In this document: in pieces, positions 4,986 through 49,038 of the stretch
Layout of the letters: each line of letters opens with the position of its first letter
Numbering within the stretch: the stretch's first letter is position 1
NCBI GenBank assembly: GCA_041659325.1
Contig: JBAZYN010000001.1
Location: 67,342-131,341, forward strand
Reading direction: 5' to 3'
DNA: 64,000 nt
Source: Candidatus Shapirobacteria bacterium
Lineage (GTDB): Bacteria; Patescibacteriota; Microgenomatia; UBA12405
The notes under the pieces: generated by a model
What the model saw: the letters and a program-made list of their open reading frames with translations, nothing else
Databases searched by the model: none
Told to the model about the DNA's origin: nothing
Program-made: the position numbers and the translations under genes

Positions 4986-6480
4986 TCCTCTTGTTGGAAT
5001 TTTGATATTTTTTTTGGTAGTTTGTTTCTATCGTCTGGACTCAATACCCGGAGAATGGTTTGGTGATGTTTCCATTGTCAATAGTTATGTTTCTCAAATT
5101 ATTACCGGGCAGTGGCCATTTACTTTTATCACTAGTCAAGGACCTCTCTACTACTATCTTATCGCTCCCATCATTTATATCTTCGGGGTTAGCTACCTGA
5201 ATTATAAAATATGCTCTGTACTTACCGGATTAATGGGCATAGTATTCGTTTATCTGTTTGTTAAAACTCTAAGCAATAGGTCAGCCGGATTAATTGCCGC
5301 CTTCATTACCGCCTCTTCTTTTTGGTACTTAGTTTGGTGCCGCCTAGGCTACAATATTATCGGCCCTGTTCTTACTGCCATCACTTTATTTTTGTTTTTT
5401 AATTATCAAAAAAATAAAAATACGAAATTTCTTTACTCGGTGCTATTTATTAGTTGCCTTGGTCTTATCAATTATGCCGGAACATTCTTCCTCCCACTGG
5501 CAATTATTACCATTTTCTTAGTAAATGCCATCTTTATATCAAAAACGAGCATTCGTTCAATTTTTACTACACTTATTATTTTTTTTATTGCTCTCGTTCC
5601 CATGGTTATCATACTTAGTCAGAACTTAGATAGTCTATCCCCTGGTTATATGGGTGAAAAATTATTTCAAACTAAACAATACTCAACCTCGGAAAATATT
5701 AATCGTCTGGCCACCAACTTACGACGCACCTTAGGTATGTTTCATTTTGAAGGTGACGTTGTTTTTCGTTGGAATGTCTCAAAAAGTCCTCATCTGGACA
5801 TTGTAAGCGGAATTTTTTTAATCATTGGCTTAATTTGTTCGTTAATTAAAAAAAAAGCTACAACTTTATTATTACTAATAAGCGCCTTTATTTTAATTTT
5901 ACCTTCAATATATCCAGGCCACCCTTCGGCGGAAGTGCCCAGTAGCCCCAGGACCCAGGCTATTATTCCCATAATAATATACTTAACTAGTTTCGGAGTT
6001 TATTACTTGACGGAATTTACAAAAAAGTTATATCCGTCAGCTACAAAAATATTACTTTTCCTCATTCTTTCTAGTATTTCATTTTTAAACTTAACCAAAT
6101 ACTTTATCGACTACCCGAAGGGTTTGCCTAACGACAATACTCCATTTGGAAAAATCATCGCCCAAGATATTGACAAGTTGCCTCCCGGAGTCGATGTATA
6201 TCTTGCCGATATCGGTTGGGGTGATTGGGAACAGCCGGAACCAGACGGAATTTTTTATGCCATAAACAACAATAAAGGAAGAGAAAATATTCTCTCGGGT
6301 ACAATAAGTGATTGTAGTCAAATTAATCAATTAAAAAATAGTTATATAATTTCAAATCCACTTAGTGAAACAAAATTAGAAATATTCCAACAATGTTTTT
6401 CTCAAATCGAAACAGAAACACACACCGTAAACAATCAACTTGTTTATAAAAGCCTGTTTATAAAATCAAATCCTGACTAA
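4969..6480 (+). CDS. Polytopic membrane protein, probably a third GT-C-type glycosyltransferase.
   Basis: Ten or more hydrophobic segments, YYYLIAP-type N-terminal segment, soluble C-terminal domain; 4-nt overlap with the upstream gene. Confidence 0.45.
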   Translation: MFKKINPLVGILIFFLVVCFYRLDSIPGEWFGDVSIVNSYVSQIITGQWPFTFITSQGPLYYYLIAPIIYIFGVSYLNYKICSVLTGLMGIVFVYLFVKTLSNRSAGLIAAFITASSFWYLVWCRLGYNIIGPVLTAITLFLFFNYQKNKNTKFLYSVLFISCLGLINYAGTFFLPLAIITIFLVNAIFISKTSIRSIFTTLIIFFIALVPMVIILSQNLDSLSPGYMGEKLFQTKQYSTSENINRLATNLRRTLGMFHFEGDVVFRWNVSKSPHLDIVSGIFLIIGLICSLIKKKATTLLLLISAFILILPSIYPGHPSAEVPSSPRTQAIIPIIIYLTSFGVYYLTEFTKKLYPSATKILLFLILSSISFLNLTKYFIDYPKGLPNDNTPFGKIIAQDIDKLPPGVDVYLADIGWGDWEQPEPDGIFYAINNNKGRENILSGTISDCSQINQLKNSYIISNPLSETKLEIFQQCFSQIETETHTVNNQLVYKSLFIKSNPD

Positions 6481-6509
6481 ATACATGTTATCATCTAAAT
6501 ACTTTTTTT

Positions 6510-7571
6510 ATGAATAAAACATTGAATCCGGCAGTAACCATTATTTCCACCTCCCCCGAAACAGTCCTAAAAGACTATCAAAAACTCTTTTCCAATTTTC
6601 CCAAACCCAAAAATGTTCCCACTATTATTAAACTAAATTTATCATGGACAAAATTTTACCCTGCCGTATCCACTCCCCCCTGGCATTTCGAAGCTGCCTT
6701 ACAGTGGCTAATTAATTCCGGCGTCTCTCCTAAAAATATTATCCCCGTCGAAAATCGAACCGTAGTAACCAAGGTTAAGGTTGGTGCCAAAAATCATGGA
6801 TGGACAAAAATTGCCAAAAAGTATGGAGTAAAAATCCATTATCTTACCGACGAAAAGTATGTTTCTTTTCATCCCAAATCAAAAATGTTGGTTTTGAACG
6901 AAATTTTCCCGGACGGAATTCTTTTACCAAAAATAATTATGGGTAAACCGTTGATTACTCTTTGCACCCTCAAATCCCATGTCTTTACCACCATTACCGG
7001 CTCAGTCAAAAATTATTTTGGTATGCTCAACACCAACCGCCACTTTTGTCATCGGCGTATTCACCAGGCCATTATCGATTTACTTCAGGTCCAAAAAGAA
7101 CTTCATCCGCAAATCTACGCTGTTATGGACGGGTCTGTTTTAGGTTTTGGGCCCGGGCCTCGCGCTATGGAGTGGGAAGCGTCTAATTTGATTTTAGGTA
7201 GTCTCGACGAAATTGCCCTGGATGCTACTGCCGCCAGAATTATTGGTTTCGACCCACACACCATCGAATTTCTTCAGCTTGGACAAAAATTAAAATTAGG
7301 GGAGATCGATCCAGTTTATAGCCAAAAATTACCAAATTTCCATCACAGCATCAAAAAAGACACCTTTGCTTCAAGAGGTCAAAAATTTATTTATCATCGT
7401 TTACCTGAGTGGATCGAAAGACTACTTCTCCGAAGTTTTATTGCCCCCTGGTCCTTCGCCGCCTCTAACTTATATCATGATGGTTATTGGTATAATTTTG
7501 TCGGTCGTTCTCGATTGAATCGCTATTTATCATCTGGTTGGGGGAAGCTATTTAAATCTTACCAAAAATAG
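6510..7571 (+). CDS. DUF362-like protein of unknown function.
   Basis: IIKLNLSW...(VKPNL-like)...LPKIIMGKPLITLCTLKSHVFTTITGSVKNYFGMLN resembles the DUF362 core (LPKLKTH..G.TGa.KN.fG). Assigned from memory only. Confidence 0.4.
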   Translation: MNKTLNPAVTIISTSPETVLKDYQKLFSNFPKPKNVPTIIKLNLSWTKFYPAVSTPPWHFEAALQWLINSGVSPKNIIPVENRTVVTKVKVGAKNHGWTKIAKKYGVKIHYLTDEKYVSFHPKSKMLVLNEIFPDGILLPKIIMGKPLITLCTLKSHVFTTITGSVKNYFGMLNTNRHFCHRRIHQAIIDLLQVQKELHPQIYAVMDGSVLGFGPGPRAMEWEASNLILGSLDEIALDATAARIIGFDPHTIEFLQLGQKLKLGEIDPVYSQKLPNFHHSIKKDTFASRGQKFIYHRLPEWIERLLLRSFIAPWSFAASNLYHDGYWYNFVGRSRLNRYLSSGWGKLFKSYQK

Positions 7572-10291: not shown

Positions 10292-12172
10292 ATGAATGAC
10301 ATATTATGCGGACTAAATCCGGCCCAAAAAGAAGCGGTGACTTATTCGGGCAGTCCGCTTTTATTGCTGGCCGGGGCCGGTTCCGGCAAAACCAGGGTGT
10401 TAACCCATCGTGCCGCCTACCTTATCAAAACTTCGGCCGCCCAAACATCAGAGATACTCCTGCTAACTTTTACCAACAAAGCTGCAGACGAGATGAAGCA
10501 ACGGATGGGCCGTTTAATTGGTTCAAAAAACAATGGATTATTCGCCGGCACTTTTCATTCATTTTGTTGTCGGGTATTGAGAGCAGACGGCTTACCGGTT
10601 GGTGTACCGCCTAATTTCAATATCTACGATACAGGCGATCAGGAAGATACCATCAGAAAGATCCTGCATGAGATGAATTTAACCCCAAAGGAGTTTAAAC
10701 CGGGCAATGTTCTCTACTACATTGGAGCTGCAAAAAATGATTTTCTCTCTCCAAAAGACATGGAGCTACAATCCTCCGGTTTTTGGCAAACTTACGCCGC
10801 AAAAATCTACGCCAAATATCAAAAAATATTATTCGAATCACACGCCCTTGATTTCGACGACCTCCTTTTCAAAACCGTCGAGCTTTTTTCCGGGCAACCC
10901 TCAATTCTTGAAAAATACCAGGACAAATACAAGTTTATCCTGGTCGACGAATACCAGGATACAAATCAAATTCAATATCTTTTGGCAAAATTATTAGCCC
11001 AAAAGTATCAACAAATCACTGCCGTGGGTGATGCATCACAGGCCATCTACGGCTGGCGTGGTGCTAATTACAAAAATCTGGTCAATTTTACTGTTGATTT
11101 CAAAGATACGAAAGTTATTAACTTAGAACAAAATTACCGTTCCACAAAAATTATCTTAGAGGCCGCTAATTCAATTATTTCCAAAAATAATTCCCACCCG
11201 GTCTTAAAGCTTTTTACCGAAAAAAAGTCATCAGACAAAATAAAACTATTTACCGCAGACTCAGAGATCAGCGAAGCAGAATATGTTTCCTCAAAAATTA
11301 AATTCATTTACGATAACTACAAAATTCCCTACAAAAATATTGCTGTTCTTTATCGCATGAATGCCCAGTCTCGGGTGTTAGAGGAAACTTTTATCAAGTC
11401 CAACATCCCCTACGTTTTAGTGGGAGGTCTTCGCTTCTACGACAGAGCCGAGGTCAAAGATATTATCGCCATGCTCCGTTTTGCCAATGATCAGGCCGAT
11501 ATTATATCTCTTGATCGGGTTGAAAAAGCCCTGGGCAAAAGAAGGTTGGAAACCTTTAAGGCTCTTCTCCGGTCCATTGATCTTCAGTCGGCAAATTCAC
11601 TTCAGATTTTCGAATCCCTGGTTATCGGGTCTGATTACTTAAAACATTTTGATCCAAAAGATGAAGAAGATCAAAAAAGAATCGAAAATATTAAAGAACT
11701 AAAATCAGTCGCCGCCTCTTTTCCGAAACTTACTACCTTTCTGGAAAATGTTGCCCTGGTCCAAAACGAATATAGTCAGCAGGAAAAAAGCAAGAAATCC
11801 AAAGAGAATAGGGAAGGGGTGAGACTAATGACTCTTCATGGCTCAAAAGGTTTAGAGTTCGAAGTCGTCTTTCTGGTAGGTTTTGAAGAGGGGATTCTTC
11901 CTCATTCAAATTGCATGCTCGACGACTCACAGATAGAGGAGGAGCGCCGTCTTTGTTATGTGGGGATTACCCGGGCCAAGGATTATCTTCATATTTCCTA
12001 CGCCACCAGACGCTTATATTTCGGCAAGAGTAGCCTAAACGAACCAAGCCGATTTTTAGGTGAAATCCCCCAAAAACTAATAGAAATCGAAGAATCAGGC
12101 GAAATTACCCGTGACTATCGGCACCCAAAAAGCGATAGCGAAGAATTTATCTATGACCCTGATATATACTAA
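10292..12172 (+). CDS. UvrD/PcrA/Rep-family ATP-dependent DNA helicase (626 aa).
   Basis: LNPAQKEAV, Walker A GAGSGKTRVLTHR, DEYQDTNQ (motif II), YRST, TLHGSKGLEFEVVFL, VGITRAK. Confidence 0.85.
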   Translation: MNDILCGLNPAQKEAVTYSGSPLLLLAGAGSGKTRVLTHRAAYLIKTSAAQTSEILLLTFTNKAADEMKQRMGRLIGSKNNGLFAGTFHSFCCRVLRADGLPVGVPPNFNIYDTGDQEDTIRKILHEMNLTPKEFKPGNVLYYIGAAKNDFLSPKDMELQSSGFWQTYAAKIYAKYQKILFESHALDFDDLLFKTVELFSGQPSILEKYQDKYKFILVDEYQDTNQIQYLLAKLLAQKYQQITAVGDASQAIYGWRGANYKNLVNFTVDFKDTKVINLEQNYRSTKIILEAANSIISKNNSHPVLKLFTEKKSSDKIKLFTADSEISEAEYVSSKIKFIYDNYKIPYKNIAVLYRMNAQSRVLEETFIKSNIPYVLVGGLRFYDRAEVKDIIAMLRFANDQADIISLDRVEKALGKRRLETFKALLRSIDLQSANSLQIFESLVIGSDYLKHFDPKDEEDQKRIENIKELKSVAASFPKLTTFLENVALVQNEYSQQEKSKKSKENREGVRLMTLHGSKGLEFEVVFLVGFEEGILPHSNCMLDDSQIEEERRLCYVGITRAKDYLHISYATRRLYFGKSSLNEPSRFLGEIPQKLIEIEESGEITRDYRHPKSDSEEFIYDPDIY

Positions 12173-15023: not shown

Positions 15024-15132
15024 AACGTCATTGCGAGGGGTCTATCCCCGCGGCAATCATAACAAGATCGCGGAGCCTGCCCCGAGAAACGAGAAATCGT
15101 TTGTCTCGCCGCATTGACAATTTACACCAAAA
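15024..15132 (+). other. Structured 109-nt gatA-gatB intergenic spacer with two imperfect hairpins (ttgcgagggg..ccccgcggcaa and gagaaacga..tcgtttgtctc).
   Basis: Inverted repeats read by eye; no T-tract after them. Confidence 0.3.
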
Positions 15133-16566
15133 ATGAAAACTACCCCCATAATCGGCCTTGAAGCCCACGTCGAACTAAAAACTAAATCAAAAATGTTTTG
15201 TGGCTGCGATGACAACCATTTTCATGTTGACCCCAATACTCACACTTGTCCGGTATGTCTTGGTCTCCCGGGGGCTCTCCCGGTTCCAAATGGAACCGCC
15301 ATCGATTGGTGTCTTAAGCTCGGCCTGGCTCTTGGCTGCACCGTCAACGAACATTCTTTTTTTGAGCGAAAAAATTACTTCTATCCGGATCTTTCAAAGG
15401 GTTATCAAATCTCCCAATACTTACAGCCTTTTACTGTAAAAGGTACCCTAAATTTAGACGGCCACGAAATCAGAATCAACCGGGCTCACCTGGAAGAAGA
15501 CACCGGCAAGTCAGTTCATGTAAACGGAACCACCTTGCTCGATTTCAATCGCTCAGGCGTTCCGTTGGTTGAGGTTGTCTCCGAGCCGGACATAACTTCC
15601 CCCCAAGAAGCCAAAAAATACTTAGTTAAATTGCAGCAAATTATTCGGTATTTAGGAATCTCCGATGCGGACATTGAAAAGGGGAGTATGCGCTGCGAGC
15701 CAACCGTCAATTTGAAAATCGAAGAAAATAGCGAGACTTACTATACCCCTCTTGTAGAAATTAAAAACGTCGCCTCCTTAACCGGCGTTCAGACTGCCAT
15801 TCAGTTTGAAATTGATCGTCAACAAAAACAATTTTTTGAAGATCATATTGTAAAGAATCCTTCTAACAAGACCACTAGAGGTTGGGACGCTGATAAAAAC
15901 CAAACTTTTTTGCAACGCGAAAAAGAGGGTTCTTCCGACTATCGTTATTTTCCTGAGCCCGATATTCCGCCCTTTGAGTTTACCGATGAAGAAATTGAAA
16001 AAATCAAATCCACCATTCCCGAACTTCCGGATCAAAAAGTTATCAAATACAAAAGCTACGGTCTTTCCGATTATGACGCCAATTTAATATCTCAGGATTC
16101 ACTTATGGCCTCGGCCTACGAAAAAGCAGTTGGACAAAACCCACTGTCGGAATTTGCCAAATTTGTTGCCAACCTATTTTCCGGATCCATTAAAACTCTT
16201 TTAAACGATAGTCAAACAGAAATCGATATTCAGCAAATTAACCCTGACCACTTTCAAAAATTATTTGACAAAAAATCTGAATTATCTTCAAACTCTATTA
16301 AGCAATTAATACTTGATAGTTATCAAACCGGTCAAGACCCGCTCTTTGCCGCCCAAAAACAAAATCTTTTTCAGGTTTCCGATACCGGAAAAATTGAAGA
16401 ATTAGCCAAAAAAGTTTTGGCCGACAACCCAAAAGCAGTTGAGGATTATAAAAAAAATCCCAACAGTATTGGTTTTCTCGTTGGCCAGTTAATGAAACTA
16501 TCTATGGGCTCCGCCAATCCCCAAATGGCAAAAGAAATTTTAGAAAAATTACTTAATAGTGACTGA
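15133..16566 (+). CDS. gatB: Glu/Asp-tRNA amidotransferase subunit B.
   Basis: Full-length GatB/GatE catalytic and tail domains (HVELKTKSKMFCGC..., C-terminal LVGQLMKLSMGSANPQ). Confidence 0.9.
   Translation: MKTTPIIGLEAHVELKTKSKMFCGCDDNHFHVDPNTHTCPVCLGLPGALPVPNGTAIDWCLKLGLALGCTVNEHSFFERKNYFYPDLSKGYQISQYLQPFTVKGTLNLDGHEIRINRAHLEEDTGKSVHVNGTTLLDFNRSGVPLVEVVSEPDITSPQEAKKYLVKLQQIIRYLGISDADIEKGSMRCEPTVNLKIEENSETYYTPLVEIKNVASLTGVQTAIQFEIDRQQKQFFEDHIVKNPSNKTTRGWDADKNQTFLQREKEGSSDYRYFPEPDIPPFEFTDEEIEKIKSTIPELPDQKVIKYKSYGLSDYDANLISQDSLMASAYEKAVGQNPLSEFAKFVANLFSGSIKTLLNDSQTEIDIQQINPDHFQKLFDKKSELSSNSIKQLILDSYQTGQDPLFAAQKQNLFQVSDTGKIEELAKKVLADNPKAVEDYKKNPNSIGFLVGQLMKLSMGSANPQMAKEILEKLLNSD
16534..16554 (+). 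repeat. Direct repeat copy 1 (gaaattttagaaaaattactt), inside the last codons of gatB.
   Basis: Exact 21/21 identity with 17824-17844; contains the palindrome aatttt-aga-aaaatt. Confidence 0.85.
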
Positions 16567-17815
16567 AGCTCTTGTCTATCGACCAAATGTTCCCGTCGGT
16601 GACCGCGGAAGCGGGAGACTACAGGGTCAATATCACGATCAGTTAAAAGCTTCACGTCAGTTAACGCCGGAAGAATGGTTAGGAGTTTTTCAAGATCGAA
16701 CCATTATTACCATCCCCGGAGAAAGCCACACCTTTGCTATTATTCTCCGTCCGGAGTTTGATGTTCCCCCGGGGTGCGATCATATGATCGTTGCTGAACC
16801 TCACTATCATCCCGGATCACCTGATTTTTATGAGCTGTCAGTACTCGCCCCTGCAGATGCACTAACAATGCTAAGAACCACCTTCGCTGTTCTTCATTCT
16901 TACAGGCAACAAGGATGTGATCATGTCAGAGCCGTTTTGAATTGTTCATCCTATGACAGTGGAGCAATTTTCAGGGGCACCGTTGTTGACAAACAAAGAT
17001 TGCCACAATCACTGATGGTCCCTCATTTCAAAACCGGTGGGTTAAAACTTAGAGAAATTCCACAATCTACTATCCTGGAAAGTGAAACCCCTTATCTTAA
17101 CCGGCCGTTACAATCAGAACTAAATCAAATTGTTAAGTATTTATCACAAAAACTGGATATATCGGTCAGCGACGGTAGTCTTCCTGCGATTGCCGTGTCA
17201 TGCGGGTCTGACCCCGGCAAACTTATTTCACTATATCAACAATTGCACCGCACAATGTTCGAAATATCTTCCTACTCGATTGGTTACGAGGGTATTCATC
17301 TGGAATCGCATGCCACCGGGACTAACCACCAAAGAACGCCAACTGTTACCGATAGTACAGGGAGGGTGTCAAACGATGATTCGGTTAAGTCTATAACTGA
17401 ATGGCTAGGCAGAGAATCGAGTCGACCTGGCACACTCGTCTCCCAAAGTGTTTTCAGAGACGATTTAACCCTTTCAGCGCTAATGGCACAATATCTCACT
17501 GCCCAGAGAGCCTATCTGGAAGCTCATCCCGCTCAAACTATGATTTTTGGTCCATCTTACAGCATGCTTATTCATGGTGTCACGAACGAGCCAGTGACAG
17601 CCCATTTTGTTCCGGCCGAGTTTGTTCCCAAAGGAGCAAACACCATCGTCAATGAATTTCCCCAGGAGACAAGACGCGCACTAACTCCAGCCGAAGTCGA
17701 AGCAATTAGAATAGGTAACGGTAAGCTTTATGATTATCTTCAAGGACATACTCCTTTTCATCCTATGTTTAATCTTGATTTCGACCTACAAAAATATGCT
17801 GACAGTTTCAACTGA
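16559..17815 (+). CDS. Hypothetical 418-aa protein of foreign composition. Contains an HYH (His-hydrophobic-His) motif, so possibly a HIT/GalT-like or HUH-type fold; function unknown.
   Basis: Long ORF with a GTG start overlapping the gatB stop. About 3% Lys against 8-10% in neighbouring proteins, and rich in H/Q/R/P/G. Confidence 0.5.
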   Translation: MTEALVYRPNVPVGDRGSGRLQGQYHDQLKASRQLTPEEWLGVFQDRTIITIPGESHTFAIILRPEFDVPPGCDHMIVAEPHYHPGSPDFYELSVLAPADALTMLRTTFAVLHSYRQQGCDHVRAVLNCSSYDSGAIFRGTVVDKQRLPQSLMVPHFKTGGLKLREIPQSTILESETPYLNRPLQSELNQIVKYLSQKLDISVSDGSLPAIAVSCGSDPGKLISLYQQLHRTMFEISSYSIGYEGIHLESHATGTNHQRTPTVTDSTGRVSNDDSVKSITEWLGRESSRPGTLVSQSVFRDDLTLSALMAQYLTAQRAYLEAHPAQTMIFGPSYSMLIHGVTNEPVTAHFVPAEFVPKGANTIVNEFPQETRRALTPAEVEAIRIGNGKLYDYLQGHTPFHPMFNLDFDLQKYADSFN

Positions 17816-17823
17816 TAAAAACG

Positions 17824-17844
17824 GAAATTTTAGAAAAATTACTT
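17824..17844 (+). repeat. Direct repeat copy 2 (gaaattttagaaaaattactt), non-coding, just after the stop of the 418-aa ORF.
   Basis: Exact 21/21 identity with 16534-16554. Confidence 0.85.
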
Positions 17845-18159
17845 TCCTGAACCTCTGACCCTCCAAGCCACCAAGTAGTCTCTTCCCTCAGGTGTTCTTA
17901 CCGATCCGGTACCACCAGTTTGTGTTCCTTTTATTGCATCATTTTGCAAAAGATTTGATCCGGGGACGGCAAAACGCACTTGTAGCTCTGTTCCAAATGG
18001 GCTGTTAAATAATGTTTGCTCTTTCGCTCCGATTTTTAATTCGACTGTACTACTTTGACCACCTTCGATTACCCCAGAAGCGCATCGTTCGACAACTAGG
18101 CCATCAGCCCCAACTTTAACTTCAAACGACGCATAAAATACATCTACTCTCCTATCCAT
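17839..18159 (-). CDS. Small (106 aa) Gly/Val-rich hypothetical protein, convergent with the 418-aa ORF.
   Basis: ORF track. On the minus strand TGcTATAAT (plus coordinates 18166-18174) lies 6 nt upstream of the ATG, which suggests a leaderless transcript. Confidence 0.3.
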   Translation of the reverse strand: MDRRVDVFYASFEVKVGADGLVVERCASGVIEGGQSSTVELKIGAKEQTLFNSPFGTELQVRFAVPGSNLLQNDAIKGTQTGGTGSVRTPEGRDYLVAWRVRGSGK

Positions 18160-18288
18160 GAGCGCATTATAGCATGATAATATAACTTTATTGTGTTACT
18201 TTCACCCTCCTCTCGCAGATACCCGTCTTTGCCAAAATGGCCTGTGGGTAAAACCCGGCAACCCTTCCTCATCGCCCCTCGCCTCTGA

Positions 18289-21200
18289 GTGTCGTTGAAC
18301 CGATGCTACAATTTATCAGTGGATAAAATTAAGACTAATTTTCAGACCGAATACGATCGTCTGAATCCCGAGCAGAAAACCGCCGTCGATACCATTGAAG
18401 GGCCGGTCATGGTTATTGCCGGCGCCGGCACCGGCAAAACTCAAACTATTGCCCTCCGCATCGGCAACATTCTCCAAAAAACCCAAACCCCGCCTTCTTC
18501 GATTTTATGTTTAACTTTCACCGAATCGGCCGCTATAAATATGCGGCAACGATTGATTGCCTTAATCGGCGCTTCGGCATACAGTATCCGCGTTTCCACC
18601 TTCCACTCCTTTTGCAATTCGGTCATCAGGGAACATCCGGAACGCTTTTTATTTTCCAAAAAAGAATCCACCTCTCTTGATGATGTCAAGCGGATTCAAA
18701 TTATCCGTACCCTTATAGATCAGCTCCCCGCCGGAAGCGCTCTCACTAGTTTCAATGCTCCATATTACTGGCAGCGCGATATTATTTCCTCCCTTCAGGA
18801 TCTCAAAAAAGAAAACGTTACCCCGGAAAATTTTTCAGAATTGATCAAATACGCCGCAGATTTTGTTTCAAATTCAAATGGTGCCTACGATCAACTTTCA
18901 AAAATCAGAGCCACCGAAAAAGCCTCCGGCGAGTTGGCGGGTATAGTCGAGAAACTGGCAGAAAATGTCCACATTCATCCTCTCTACCAAAGCCGGGTTA
19001 ATTTATATCTGACCCTCTTTAAGCAAGGGGACACCTCTCTCTCCGATCTCAAAAAGAATATTCGTGATTTGATAGAAAAAACCAAAAATAACTTACCCAG
19101 ACTCAACGATCTTTTAACTATTTACCGCGGTTATCAACAGGCCCTCCTCGACCAGAATCTTTTCGACTACGACGACATGATTCTCTGGGTTTTAGCCGCT
19201 TTCAGAAACAATCAGGAATTATTGGCCGAATATCAGGAAAAATATCAATACCTTTTAGTCGATGAATTTCAGGACACAAATTCATCTCAATTTGAGATTT
19301 TAAATCTGTTAAGCAGCCACCAATCAGAACCAAATTTATTTGTCGTCGGTGACGACGATCAGTCCATCTACCGTTTCCAGGGTGCTTCGGTTGAAAACAT
19401 CTATAATTTTTATCAAAGATATCAGGCCGGTATTAGAGTCATTGTATTAAAAAACAATTACCGTAGTCACAAACTGATACTGGAATCATCCGATTGTGTT
19501 ATAAAAAACAATTTAGTTCGCATCACTCAATATATAAAAAACTTAGACAAGTCCCTCGTCTCCACAAAAACATTCGATCCCGACCCGATCAATTTGGGAA
19601 TTTATACCAGCCCCGAAGACGAAGTTATAAATGTAGTCCAAAAGATCAAATCACTTATCGGTGATGGGGTAAGTCCAAAAGAAATTGCCGTACTTTTTCG
19701 TAACAACGCCGATATTCAGGATTTTTTGCCGGCTTTTGACCAACAAGGTGTAAAGTACCTTCTTTCAGATAACATAGATATTTTAAAAAGTAGGGAAATT
19801 CAGCAGTTGATTGATCTCATGAAGTTTATTGTCAATCCCCACGACGATCACACTCTTGGTCAAATTTTATCCTTTAACTTTTTGAAAATCGACCCCTTTG
19901 ATCTTTACCGCTTATACCACTACACTGGCAGACACGATCTGTCCGTCTCCGAATTTATACTCGACAAAAACAATCTCTTGTCGCTTAAGATAAAGCCTTA
20001 TACCATCCGTCAACTCAGAAATTTCGTTATTCGGGTTGCCAAAACCAGGCAGAAATCCGGCAATCTGCCTCTCGACCACCTATTTAACGAAATTATCCGT
20101 CGTTTCCGTCTTTTAAAATACATTCTCGATCAACGTCGTGTTGACTTGCTTAAGCAGTTAAACGTCCTTTTTAGTTTAATAAAATCCCGTCTTCAAAATG
20201 AGTCCACTTATACTCTTGAACAATTCGTTGAAGAGCTTGATCTGCTGAGAGAAAACCAGATAAATCTTAATTCCCAGCCGCTTCTGGTCGACATCGATAA
20301 AAGTGTCCGTTTAATGACTGTTCACAAAGCCAAGGGGCTGGAGTTTGAACATGTATTTCTTGTGAAAGTAGTAAGTGGTAAATGGGACAGTTCTTCCTCC
20401 CGAAATTTAATTAAATTACCCCTTGGAATAGTCAAGACTGATATTACCCAAGTTACCGGTGACCAAGATCTCGAAGAAGACCGTCGTCTTTTTTATGTTG
20501 CTCTCACCCGGGCTAAAAAACAAATTTACATCAGCCTTTCCCGGCGCACCGAAACCGGTCGTGAGCAGCTGCCATCAGTGTTTGTCAGCGAAATCAACCC
20601 CTCTCTTTTAGAAAAATTTGAAAGCACCGCCGAGAGTGAAGCTCATAGTCTTCGCTCTCAATATTCAGTATCTTTTCCCAAGCTTAAGTCAATTAATCTC
20701 TCTGATTATCTAAGAAATTATCTTTCCACCTCATATCGTTTTAATATCACTCACCTAAACTCTTATCTAAATTGCCCTCTCTGTTTCTTTTTCAAAACAA
20801 TACTTCGCCTACCTTCTCCCAAAACCAGGAGTCTCTCGATGGGTACTTCCGTCCATGGCAGCCTTGCCTATTTGTTTCAAGTCTACAAAGAAGATAACAG
20901 GCTAATCTCCTTGGATAAATTTAAAGAAATTTATAAAAATAATTTGCAAAGAGAACATCTACCGAAAAAGGACCATCGGCAAGTTCTTGCCGCCGGCCTG
21001 CAGATTTTAACCGATTATTATAATCATTATCAGACCGAGTTTAACGGCAACTGTTTTACCGAACACGATTTCCGTTTTCATGGTATAAGATTAAACGGTA
21101 TTCCGATTACCGGAAAAATCGACAAAATTGACATTATCGATAAAAATCACGTTAACGTGGTTGACTTCAAAACCGGTAAACCTGATAATAAATATGGAGA

Positions 21201-21492
21201 ATTGAGCCGTGATGGTGACTATTTCCGCCAACTGGTTTTCTACAAGATCCTCTGCGAAAATTCAGCCACATTTCCATACAAAGTTACCCAAGGCACGATC
21301 GACTTTATCGAAAAAACTAAGTCGGGTGAATTTAAACGGGTAACTTTTGAGATAACTTCAGACGATGTTAACAATCTTACTCAGCTTATTGCAGAAACCT
21401 ATGCCAAAATCGCTGATTTAGAATTTATTCCCTCACGGACGTGTAGGGATCCGGATCATGTCCACTACCTGTTTGACCAGTATTTTTTATAA
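18289..21492 (+). CDS. UvrD-family helicase fused to a C-terminal PD-(D/E)xK (RecB/AddB-like) nuclease domain (1067 aa).
   Basis: LNPEQKTAV, GAGTGKTQTI, DEFQDT, TVHKAKGLEFEHVFL, YVALTRAK. The C-terminal region has ITGKIDKIDIID...VVDFKTGKP...YFRQLVFYKI (D..D/EXK plus a YKTG-like motif). Start codon is not ATG (GTG 18289 or 18319). Confidence 0.8.
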   Translation: MSLNRCYNLSVDKIKTNFQTEYDRLNPEQKTAVDTIEGPVMVIAGAGTGKTQTIALRIGNILQKTQTPPSSILCLTFTESAAINMRQRLIALIGASAYSIRVSTFHSFCNSVIREHPERFLFSKKESTSLDDVKRIQIIRTLIDQLPAGSALTSFNAPYYWQRDIISSLQDLKKENVTPENFSELIKYAADFVSNSNGAYDQLSKIRATEKASGELAGIVEKLAENVHIHPLYQSRVNLYLTLFKQGDTSLSDLKKNIRDLIEKTKNNLPRLNDLLTIYRGYQQALLDQNLFDYDDMILWVLAAFRNNQELLAEYQEKYQYLLVDEFQDTNSSQFEILNLLSSHQSEPNLFVVGDDDQSIYRFQGASVENIYNFYQRYQAGIRVIVLKNNYRSHKLILESSDCVIKNNLVRITQYIKNLDKSLVSTKTFDPDPINLGIYTSPEDEVINVVQKIKSLIGDGVSPKEIAVLFRNNADIQDFLPAFDQQGVKYLLSDNIDILKSREIQQLIDLMKFIVNPHDDHTLGQILSFNFLKIDPFDLYRLYHYTGRHDLSVSEFILDKNNLLSLKIKPYTIRQLRNFVIRVAKTRQKSGNLPLDHLFNEIIRRFRLLKYILDQRRVDLLKQLNVLFSLIKSRLQNESTYTLEQFVEELDLLRENQINLNSQPLLVDIDKSVRLMTVHKAKGLEFEHVFLVKVVSGKWDSSSSRNLIKLPLGIVKTDITQVTGDQDLEEDRRLFYVALTRAKKQIYISLSRRTETGREQLPSVFVSEINPSLLEKFESTAESEAHSLRSQYSVSFPKLKSINLSDYLRNYLSTSYRFNITHLNSYLNCPLCFFFKTILRLPSPKTRSLSMGTSVHGSLAYLFQVYKEDNRLISLDKFKEIYKNNLQREHLPKKDHRQVLAAGLQILTDYYNHYQTEFNGNCFTEHDFRFHGIRLNGIPITGKIDKIDIIDKNHVNVVDFKTGKPDNKYGELSRDGDYFRQLVFYKILCENSATFPYKVTQGTIDFIEKTKSGEFKRVTFEITSDDVNNLTQLIAETYAKIADLEFIPSRTCRDPDHVHYLFDQYFL

Positions 21493-48922: not shown

Positions 48923-49038
48923 AACCTAATACTAGTAGGACACTTTATAAACTTCAAGCATTAATCTGTAAAGACGTGGCGCGCTTTGTCTCTACGCGAA
49001 ATTTGACAACATACCGCAAAGAATGAGATATTATTTGC

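Follow-up and report, generated by a model that had tools for sequence, protein, structure and literature searches.

Organization of the gatB locus

The window analysed here, a stretch of 64,000 nucleotides from a metagenome-assembled genome of Candidatus Shapirobacteria (Microgenomates; GenBank assembly GCA_041659325.1, contig JBAZYN010000001.1, positions 67,342 to 131,341), contains a gatC-gatA-gatB block in which the last gene, gatB, is followed by a single open reading frame (ORF) for a protein of 418 amino acids. This ORF, referred to below as the cargo, is bracketed by two perfect copies of a 21-bp sequence, GAAATTTTAGAAAAATTACTT, and the segment between the copies is referred to as the insert. 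The features of the locus are collected in Table 1.

An initial annotation of this DNA had pointed to the two copies as a pairing beyond chance, and the counts bear this out. The window holds exactly two copies, with no third copy found in it even when 3 mismatches were allowed, and two or more matches were seen in 0 of 100 dinucleotide shuffles. The pair is the longest exact dispersed repeat of the window and its sole approximate repeat at gene-bracketing distance that exceeds the shuffle expectation. The insert was likewise correctly described as a segment of about 1.29 kb with one ORF, which leaves very little at its ends. It starts directly behind the last leucine codon of GatB and its boundaries are sharp: 4 nt stand ahead of the cargo start, and the 8 nt past the cargo stop, TAAAAACG, are all that separates the stop codon from the 21-mer. 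The right junction reads ...TGATAAAAACG followed by GAAATT.... Terminal inverted repeats are absent from the insert, whose termini agree at 3 of 20 positions. An Rfam search of 14.5-18.7 kb gave zero matches, hence no intron or ribozyme, no tRNA genes were found in the window, and a promoter and terminator scan gave no signal at either repeat.

Table 1. Features of the gatB region in the window, followed by those of the related locus L094 (positions in L094 numbering).
Feature	Position	Strand	Basis or remark
gatB, last gene of the gatC-gatA-gatB block	15133..16566	+	GatB_N E 2e-102, GatB_Yqey E 2e-28; 100% match to a named GatB of Candidatus Shapirobacteria
Left repeat copy	16534..16554	+	Exact match; codes for E-I-L-E-K-L-L of GatB
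Inserted segment, 1,269 bp, 99% coding	16555..17823	+	Without terminal inverted repeats; not in L082, L084, L094, L096, L098, L126
Cargo ORF, 418 aa, 1,257 bp	16559..17815	+	GTG start; predicted divergent HIT-superfamily enzyme
Right repeat copy	17824..17844	+	Exact match; non-coding on + strand
Fossil of original gatB terminus, EILEKLLS then TGA	17824..17850	+	Translation
Hypothetical 106-aa ORF	17839..18159	-	TAA stop inside right repeat; doubtful gene; no Pfam, NCBIfam or PHROG match, no homologue in related loci
Truncated relic of small conserved ORF (...CQNGLWVKPGNPSS...ECR-stop)	18173..18298	+	tblastx and translations; C-terminal half only
UvrD-type helicase with PD-(D/E)XK nuclease domain, conserved right flank	18319..21492	+	Pfam; synteny
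L094 insert span	6415-7324		Bracketed by 25/28 gatB-end duplication
L094 tRNA-Trp	6582-6669	-	Between repeats
L094 140-aa ORF	6696-7118	-	Between repeats

A fossil of the original gatB end

GatB was predicted to end in frame with or without the insert, and this is the case. With the insert in place the protein ends ...EILEKLLNSD-stop, the last three residues being a new tail supplied by the insert, whereas the right copy together with the next six bases, TCCTGA, translates as EILEKLLS-stop. In related GatBs the stop falls exactly one residue past KLL in 89 of 121 sequences, and the chance of a stop at the fossil's codon alone is about 0.06 from base composition. The right-hand sequence matches the usual end of GatB in this clade (...KLLX-stop); it is therefore what is left of the original gatB terminus, as a fossil, and the insertion is real. 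The coding sequence for the new NSD tail runs into the start of the cargo: the gatB stop and the cargo GTG overlap by eight bases (GTGACTGA, 16559-16566), and from this overlap it is probable that the cargo is expressed from the gat operon by translational coupling to gatB. Protein-block and codon-level mosaic tests found no foreign tract in the 3' part of gatB.

The initial annotation had also held that the composition of the cargo differs from that of every neighbour, a claim that holds less well. Its GC content is 0.453 against 0.413 +/- 0.031 for 45 window genes (z about +1.3), and its GC content at third codon positions (GC3) is 0.370 against 0.403 +/- 0.032 for the same genes, i.e. native; the difference lies in amino acids and is not a foreign-DNA signature. 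The 21-mer stretch is the recipient lineage's own allele, from which six other lineages differ at 2-5 synonymous positions. It does contain the palindrome AATTTT-AGA-AAAATT, with 6-nt arms and a 3-nt spacer, that had been proposed as a recombinase core site, but synonymous changes interrupt the palindrome in 6 of 6 other lineages compared, and it amounts to this lineage's codon choice for E-I-L-E-K-L.

Two further readings of the 21-mer, as a generic repeat or as a shared attachment (att) site, were rejected. Exact matches in 596 Gb of genomes amount to 27 single, unpaired occurrences, all of them coding for 'EILEKLL' in unrelated proteins, and viral contigs gave 4 chance matches. The two copies in the window are identical at 21 of 21 positions, which places the 95% upper bound on their divergence at about 0.14 substitutions per site; the repeats are thus young when measured against neutral divergence.

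The same gene at the same junction in a second lineage

A search of 5.8 billion clustered proteins with the cargo sequence returned one homologue, P0002, at 59% identity. It is encoded on a metagenomic contig, L001 (Ga0438313_0042337, sample 3300045116; 2.9 kb), immediately after gatB and at the same position past KLL. The gatB stop and ORF start of L001 overlap in the same eight-base arrangement, ATGACTGA against the window's own overlap given above, and the leader is homologous between the two carriers (AATAGTGACTGAAGCT in the window, AAAAATGACTGAAGCT in L001). A candidate right-hand repeat on L001, only a 6-nt CTACTC match, was judged to be chance and set aside.

The carriers are not close to each other: their GatBs are 63% identical, and L001 is more distant from the window than are over 120 relatives without the ORF. 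The closest public GatBs are 82-84% identical to that of the window, and the two nearest relatives (84% and 82%) do not have the cargo. The nearest relative of L001 is L098 (GatB 87% identical in amino acids, 80% in nucleotides), which ends KLLK-stop without the cargo ORF, and nucleotide homology between L001 and L098 stops exactly at the gatB junction. A search for related loci without the insert had been proposed at the outset; every relative that was compared lacks the ORF, including the six listed in Table 1, but the searchable data contain no empty site at strain level. On a neighbour-joining tree of 202 GatBs, one gain in the common ancestor would require at least 14 precise losses, against two gains, and since the nearest relatives of both carriers lack the ORF, two gains are far more parsimonious.

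These comparisons make it very improbable that the cargo is an old operon partner of gatB, inherited vertically, lost nearly everywhere and flanked by a repeat of unrelated origin. The divergence of the ORF between the carriers (59% identity) does resemble that of GatB (63%), GC3 is native and the translational-coupling architecture is conserved, all of which favour vertical descent. But the at least 14 losses would have been independent and precise, each restoring the canonical KLLX-stop end, and the nearest relatives of both carriers are empty. The in-frame EILEKLLS-stop fossil would have to be a coincidence, the chance of the stop alone being about 0.06, and a perfect 21/21 repeat with the divergence bound given above cannot be ancient.

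L001 also bears on the possibility of an assembly artefact, either a chimeric join or a strain mixture collapsed at the shared 21-mer. The source is metagenome-assembled, and 21 is a k-mer size of some assemblers; however, the left junction is independently confirmed by L001 in another sample and another assembly, the right junction assembles only if reads contain that sequence, and the contig, at 573,898 bp, has flanking synteny as in relatives. We find an artefact scarcely credible.

A variable slot between gatB and the helicase

The gene order common to the relatives is UvrD-like helicase, FemAB, gatC, gatA, gatB, a variable segment, UvrD/PD-(D/E)XK helicase, RmuC and HrcA. No two lineages have the same content in the gap that separates gatB from the second helicase, which can be 0 bp long or hold as many as four genes. 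In L126 there is nothing between gatB and the helicase; L082 has a RAYT/IS200-like gene with repetitive extragenic palindromic (REP) sequences and two small ORFs; L096 has an HD-domain gene, a RAYT-like gene as in L082 and small ORFs; L094 has a tRNA-Trp gene, a 140-aa ORF on the opposite strand and a RAYT-like gene; and in L098 the gap is filled by a small minus-strand ORF, TspO and two further small ORFs. L084 carries a methyltransferase directly after gatB and L085 a GNAT gene that overlaps the gatB stop, both on contigs that end before any downstream helicase. The gatA-gatB junction is equally variable in relatives, holding a NUDIX gene, a serine hydrolase, a 136-aa ORF or nothing. Because both junctions vary in this way, the insertion seems to lie in a gene-exchange hotspot of an otherwise conserved block.

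One of these relatives carries a second repeat-flanked insertion at the same place. The gatB end of L094, AAAAATTACTAAAATAACTTGCTTTTTT (6415-6442), recurs 882 bp downstream as AAAAATTGCTAAAATAAATTGTTTTTTT, with 25 of 28 positions matching and the stop codon included, and the tRNA-Trp gene and 140-aa ORF lie between the two copies. L082 has a homologue of the right copy in its gatB-end/RAYT-upstream sequence, and the L094 repeats overlap the window repeat in AAAAATTACT. Duplications of the gatB end thus flank inserts at 2 of 9 Shapirobacteria loci, the window and L094, with lengths and registers that differ: the window repeat is 21 nt and ends before the stop, and that of L094 is 28 nt and spans it. 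In a control of 78 gatB loci, including 71 distant ones (metagenome GatBs at most 46% identical, among the matches listed), no other gatB-end duplications were found besides low-complexity and coding coincidences.

The slot of the window itself carries traces of more than one change. About 320 bp at 17851-18172, within the roughly 380 bp past the fossil, have no homologue in related loci and no family match, and the 106-aa ORF predicted there is unrelated to the 140-aa ORF of L094, as both are to anything else compared. Further downstream comes the relic of a small ORF. L082 and L096 keep this ORF whole upstream of their helicase genes, with a length of 50-51 aa and a hydrophobic N-terminus. 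The slot has therefore undergone remodelling more than once, the relic recording an earlier deletion or replacement there. The helicase itself likely starts at GTG 18319, and not at GTG 18289 as in the mechanically called ORF, because the former aligns with the start in L082.

Several other features of the block were recorded. An extended -10-like sequence, TGCTACAAT, at 18304-18312 precedes GTG 18319, and an equivalent, TGCTAAAAT, is kept upstream of the helicase in L082 and L096. Two UvrD-family helicase genes, 10292-12172 and 18319-21492 (the second fused to the PD-(D/E)XK nuclease), bracket FemAB-gatCAB and are kept in the relatives that were fetched; the two resemble a split AddAB/AdnAB-like pair. 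In relatives, the genes found between gatA and gatB (NUDIX, serine-hydrolase or unknown) have overlapping stops and starts. In the window the gatA-gatB spacer (15024-15132) is a GC-rich segment of 109 nt with a strong predicted structure of -35.6 kcal/mol (z -3.5), has no Rfam match and is unlike the L082 spacer.

Immediately downstream of gatB, three relatives carry the RAYT/IS200-like gene, of about 190 aa (L082:5730-6390; L094:7352-7921; L096:7057-7623), and a perfect palindrome, GTAGAGACGTAGCGCGCTACGTCTCTAC, occurs upstream of it in L082 and inside its coding sequence in L082 and L096. A RAYT/REP-mediated origin of the insertion is unsupported, as both the RAYT-like gene and the REP palindrome are absent from the window. 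An isolated REP-like hairpin at 48968-48995 (GTAAAGACG ... TGTCTCTAC), in an intergenic position, resembles half-sites of the relatives' REP palindrome. Elsewhere in the window an 18-nt tandem repeat array (ACCAAAACTCCAATCCCTACC-like) at 313-525, inside ORF 94-816, encodes a Thr/Pro-rich region; GC content at the second codon positions of that ORF is unusually high at 0.61.

The cargo protein

The 418-aa cargo protein has zero matches in Pfam, NCBIfam, PHROG and PDB sequences. A profile search of 1.84 billion representative proteins found eight family clusters in all. No relatives were found on phages or plasmids by tblastn, and family scans of viral contigs and of 185,579 species genomes were also without relatives. 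Structure prediction with AlphaFold2 from a 2-sequence alignment was unusable (pLDDT 34); a 9-sequence alignment worked, and the fold predicted from it is HIT-like, with the HIT alpha+beta arrangement and Foldseek matches that are weak but concordant.

The canonical HxHxHxx triad is not present. H156 is the only invariant histidine and stands in an H-x-K context, which reads P-H-F-K in the window and is variable in relatives. Known HIT enzymes (HINT/Fhit, GalT, Apa2, CWF19 and DcpS, and the Legionella protein Lpg0439) differ from the cargo, which has no triad, is 418 aa long and has large extra helical parts. The protein is a new, extremely rare branch of the HIT superfamily without a characterised member. 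It is most likely a nucleotide hydrolase or transferase, rather than one of the recombinases or nucleases known from mobile elements. The absence of an integrase or transposase from the insert, as first annotated, is thus upheld by the fold of its sole ORF and by the empty family searches.

The distant family members P0123, P0124 and P0127 do not adjoin gatB. Neighbours of P0123 are GNAT, MFS and BlaI/BlaR-like genes, and those of P0127 are histidine phosphatases. P0124 (L092:5001-7823) is convergent with a gene for a 491-aa amidase (GatA-like, PF01425) and adjoins an ATP-grasp (RimK-like) gene, a context that is perhaps a sign of a functional connection to amidotransferase genes, or else coincidence.

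Comparison with known mobile elements

The anatomy of the locus most resembles that of two kinds of element without a recombinase of their own, and its content that of a third. Cis-mobilizable elements (CIMEs) are decayed remnants of ICEs (integrative and conjugative elements) or IMEs (integrative and mobilizable elements) which retain attL and attR without integration or transfer genes (PMC5704250). The insert shares with them the perfect 21-bp flanking repeats, of which the right one, extended by 6 nt, forms the original gatB end, the lack of a recombinase, and a site at the 3' end of a conserved protein-coding gene that is kept functional. It differs from them in holding no decayed ICE or IME genes, being 99% one intact ORF, in its host, a member of the candidate phyla radiation (CPR), and in the stop/start overlap with the operon. 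Phage, plasmid and viral collections yielded no element that targets gatB, and the 1-34.5 kb region no integrase. We know of no ICE, IME or integrase that targets gatB.

The H47 island of Escherichia coli is 13 kb long, is flanked by long imperfect repeats, and was shown experimentally to excise and integrate by unknown RecA-independent host functions (PMC3191183, PMC5426353). It resembles the present locus in its 'parasitic' lack of a recombinase of its own, so that any mobility must rest on host functions at the short flanking direct repeats; the present insert differs in its size of 1.3 kb and its perfect 21-bp repeat. Integron cassettes are the closest match in content, being promoterless single-ORF units of about 1 kb that are read from an upstream promoter and for which a circular intermediate carrying a single recombination site is expected. 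The insert, however, has no attC-type imperfect palindrome (typically 57-141 nt) past its stop, only 8 nt and the 21-mer, and it has no intI or attI and no cassette array, its neighbours being gatCAB and a helicase. Taken together, the anatomy appears most like that of a CIME or an H47-type island, with content that resembles an integron cassette.

Other systems fit less well. Integrative mobile elements exploiting Xer (IMEX; e.g. CTXphi-type) integrate at the chromosomal dif site and carry dif-like XerC and XerD arms that surround a spacer of 6-8 bp. They share with the insert the lack of an own recombinase and short flanking repeats, but the site used here is the last gatB codons in a conserved operon and not dif, and the arms are 6 nt with a 3-nt spacer, against arms of about 11 nt. 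The comparison with dif that had been suggested gave no similarity: when the window was scanned for the dif core ATAATNTATATTATGT with up to 3 mismatches, the sites recovered included neither copy of the 21-mer, and cumulative GC skew is monotonic through the region. Of the reading of the locus as site-specific integration that regenerates a gene end, the insertion and its fossil KLLX-stop end are thus supported, but the dif or IMEX form is not, in view of the gene-end site and non-Xer geometry. Insertion sequences (IS) and transposons differ in having a transposase, terminal inverted repeats or both, and islands at gene ends that carry an integrase differ in that no integrase stands by either att-like repeat here, the insert having one ORF and the flanking 106-aa ORF no family match.

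Homology-facilitated illegitimate recombination (HFIR), described in natural transformation (de Vries & Wackernagel, 2002; Prudhomme, 2002; summarised in PMC6382021), offers a further parallel. A conserved anchor, here gatB, admits foreign DNA whose far end joins illegitimately, with no need for a dedicated enzyme encoded by the element. Classical HFIR products, unlike the present locus, usually delete recipient DNA and do not duplicate it, and the repeats here are free of mismatches. To our knowledge, HFIR has not been demonstrated in CPR bacteria.

Origin of the insertion

The explanation that we favour, and to which we would give an even chance, is a lineage-specific gain of a promoterless single-gene cassette, encoding a rare HIT-like enzyme, into the variable gatB-helicase slot by way of the conserved gatB end and host functions. 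We hold somewhat more tentatively the mechanism that goes with it, in which the conserved gatB terminus would be the recombination substrate and the catalysts would be host functions, not an element-encoded, Xer-type or integron-type recombinase. Among the 24 large annotated ORFs of the 1-34.5 kb region no recombinase was found. Two routes can be envisaged. In one, the gatB end and a small circle carrying the same stretch would undergo a single crossover of the Campbell type; the other is HFIR with DNA from a relative that already carried a gatB-ORF fusion. The event itself left the recipient with two copies of 21 bp of its own gatB end. Two perfect repeats should in turn permit precise loss of the cassette and restore the normal gatB end; such a loss would give the empty-site sequence GGCAAAAGAAATTTTAGAAAAATTACTTTCCTGAACC, and a circle or tandem junction would read TGATAAAAACGGAAATTTTAGAAAAATTACTTAATAGTGACTGA.

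Host recombination at the gatB end would account for the shared left junction, through descent of one gatB-ORF fusion, and for the hotspot, the differing lengths of the repeats and a composition that is native, all without invoking any unseen enzyme. The young repeats, together with a cargo that is 41% diverged from P0002, indicate that the gene is a recent arrival from outside, the simplest source being a related CPR lineage whose codon usage is similar, and the native GC3 fits such an exchange among relatives. Precedents exist both for a direct-repeat-flanked island without a recombinase that is moved by host functions (H47; PMC3191183, PMC5426353) and for gene entry by a single anchor (HFIR; PMC6382021). 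Nothing in the locus demonstrates a dedicated site-specific integration system.

Several observations weigh against a gain by host functions. No donor, empty-site allele or circular form was found, the closest public relative being at 84% GatB identity. It is unlikely a priori that a random fragment, circular or linear, would have ends as economical as 4 nt and 8 nt. A foreign donor tail in HFIR should leave mismatches between the copies, yet these are identical at 21 of 21 positions, and joints within the last 30 nt of gatB in 2 of 9 Shapirobacteria loci hint at a specificity beyond homology. L001, finally, shows no right-hand repeat within the 182 nt available past its ORF. The initial annotation had named the same ORF without flanking repeats in relatives as evidence against its proposal; L001 is formally such a case, but only those 182 nt are available, and that DNA is not homologous to the empty L098.

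The economical ends and the two joints within the last 30 nt of gatB are the reason that a trans-acting site-specific system, although unlikely, is kept under consideration. It would be a minimal non-autonomous cassette, like a CIME, an IMEX or an integron cassette, with a recombinase in trans that uses the gatB terminus as attB and with circles made up of one gene and an att site. The perfect direct repeats around a 99%-coding unit are as expected of such a cassette, as is the regenerated gatB end. Two distant lineages whose nearest relatives are empty share the insertion point and have homologous left ends, and a second cargo, in L094, lies between gatB-end repeats that overlap the window repeat, with no such duplications found in the 71 distant loci. 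But no candidate recombinase was found in or near the locus (within 1-34.5 kb), the repeats of the window and L094 are unequal in length and register (21 nt against 28 nt), the palindrome is not conserved, neither repeat copy is similar to dif, and the 21-mer is nowhere else an att site in the genome and viral collections. No relatives of the cassette were found on phages, plasmids or viral contigs or in the 185,579 species genomes, L001 has no visible right repeat, and one gatB-ORF fusion spread by homologous recombination explains the shared left junction equally well. A site-specific recombinase acting in trans is thus possible but not required, as recombination anchored in gatB gives the same anatomy.

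In its strongest form, which we consider decidedly unlikely, the cassette reading would have CPR bacteria of the Shapirobacteria group possess an undescribed form of single-gene mobility, in which minimal cassettes of one ORF and about 20-30 bp of gatB terminus would excise as circles and re-integrate precisely at the last codons of gatB, with a host or helper recombinase acting in trans. The window, L001 and L094 would then be, with the same low probability, three products of one system, plugged into the gat operon by coupling. A variant in which the HIT-fold enzyme of the cargo itself catalyses the reaction, via a covalent His-nucleotide or His-DNA intermediate, is far less likely.

The duplication could instead have been made in situ, either as a 21-nt target-site duplication at a staggered cut (transposition or casposon-like) or by a template switch of the microhomology-mediated break-induced replication (MMBIR) type that copied foreign DNA and re-primed 21 nt upstream. 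In favour of this, both copies are the recipient's allele and identical at 21 of 21 positions, and the left gatB tract without mosaicism and the sharp insert boundaries agree with it. Fixed target-site duplications are 2-14 nt for IS elements and transposons and about 14-15 nt for casposons. The 21 nt seen here exceed these, terminal inverted repeats, a transposase and a casposase are all lacking, and the L094 duplication has another length. A template switch would also leave unexplained why the same ORF family stands at the same nucleotide in L001, unless the donor already had a gatB tail. We judge an origin in situ quite improbable, and return to a gain through the gatB end by host functions as the preferred reading.

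Implications for gene acquisition in CPR bacteria

The locus is a minimal, single-gene, direct-repeat-flanked insertion that sits where an essential gene of a CPR bacterium ends, and its cargo belongs to a new and very rare HIT-superfamily branch. Gene acquisition by the tiny, reduced genomes of CPR bacteria (Patescibacteria) is poorly understood, and few of their mobile elements have been characterised. Against this background the locus is an unusually clean footprint of one acquisition: the old stop can still be seen 1.3 kb downstream, and a stop/start overlap ties the new gene into the operon. The variable slot, the second repeat-flanked cargo and the occurrence of the same rare gene at the same nucleotide in another lineage suggest that the conserved gatB end itself serves as a docking site. 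The evidence rests on three loci, and ordinary homology-driven capture explains most of it. If a dedicated mechanism does exist, it would be a new minimal cassette system; if not, the locus would be a textbook-quality natural case of homology-anchored gene capture.

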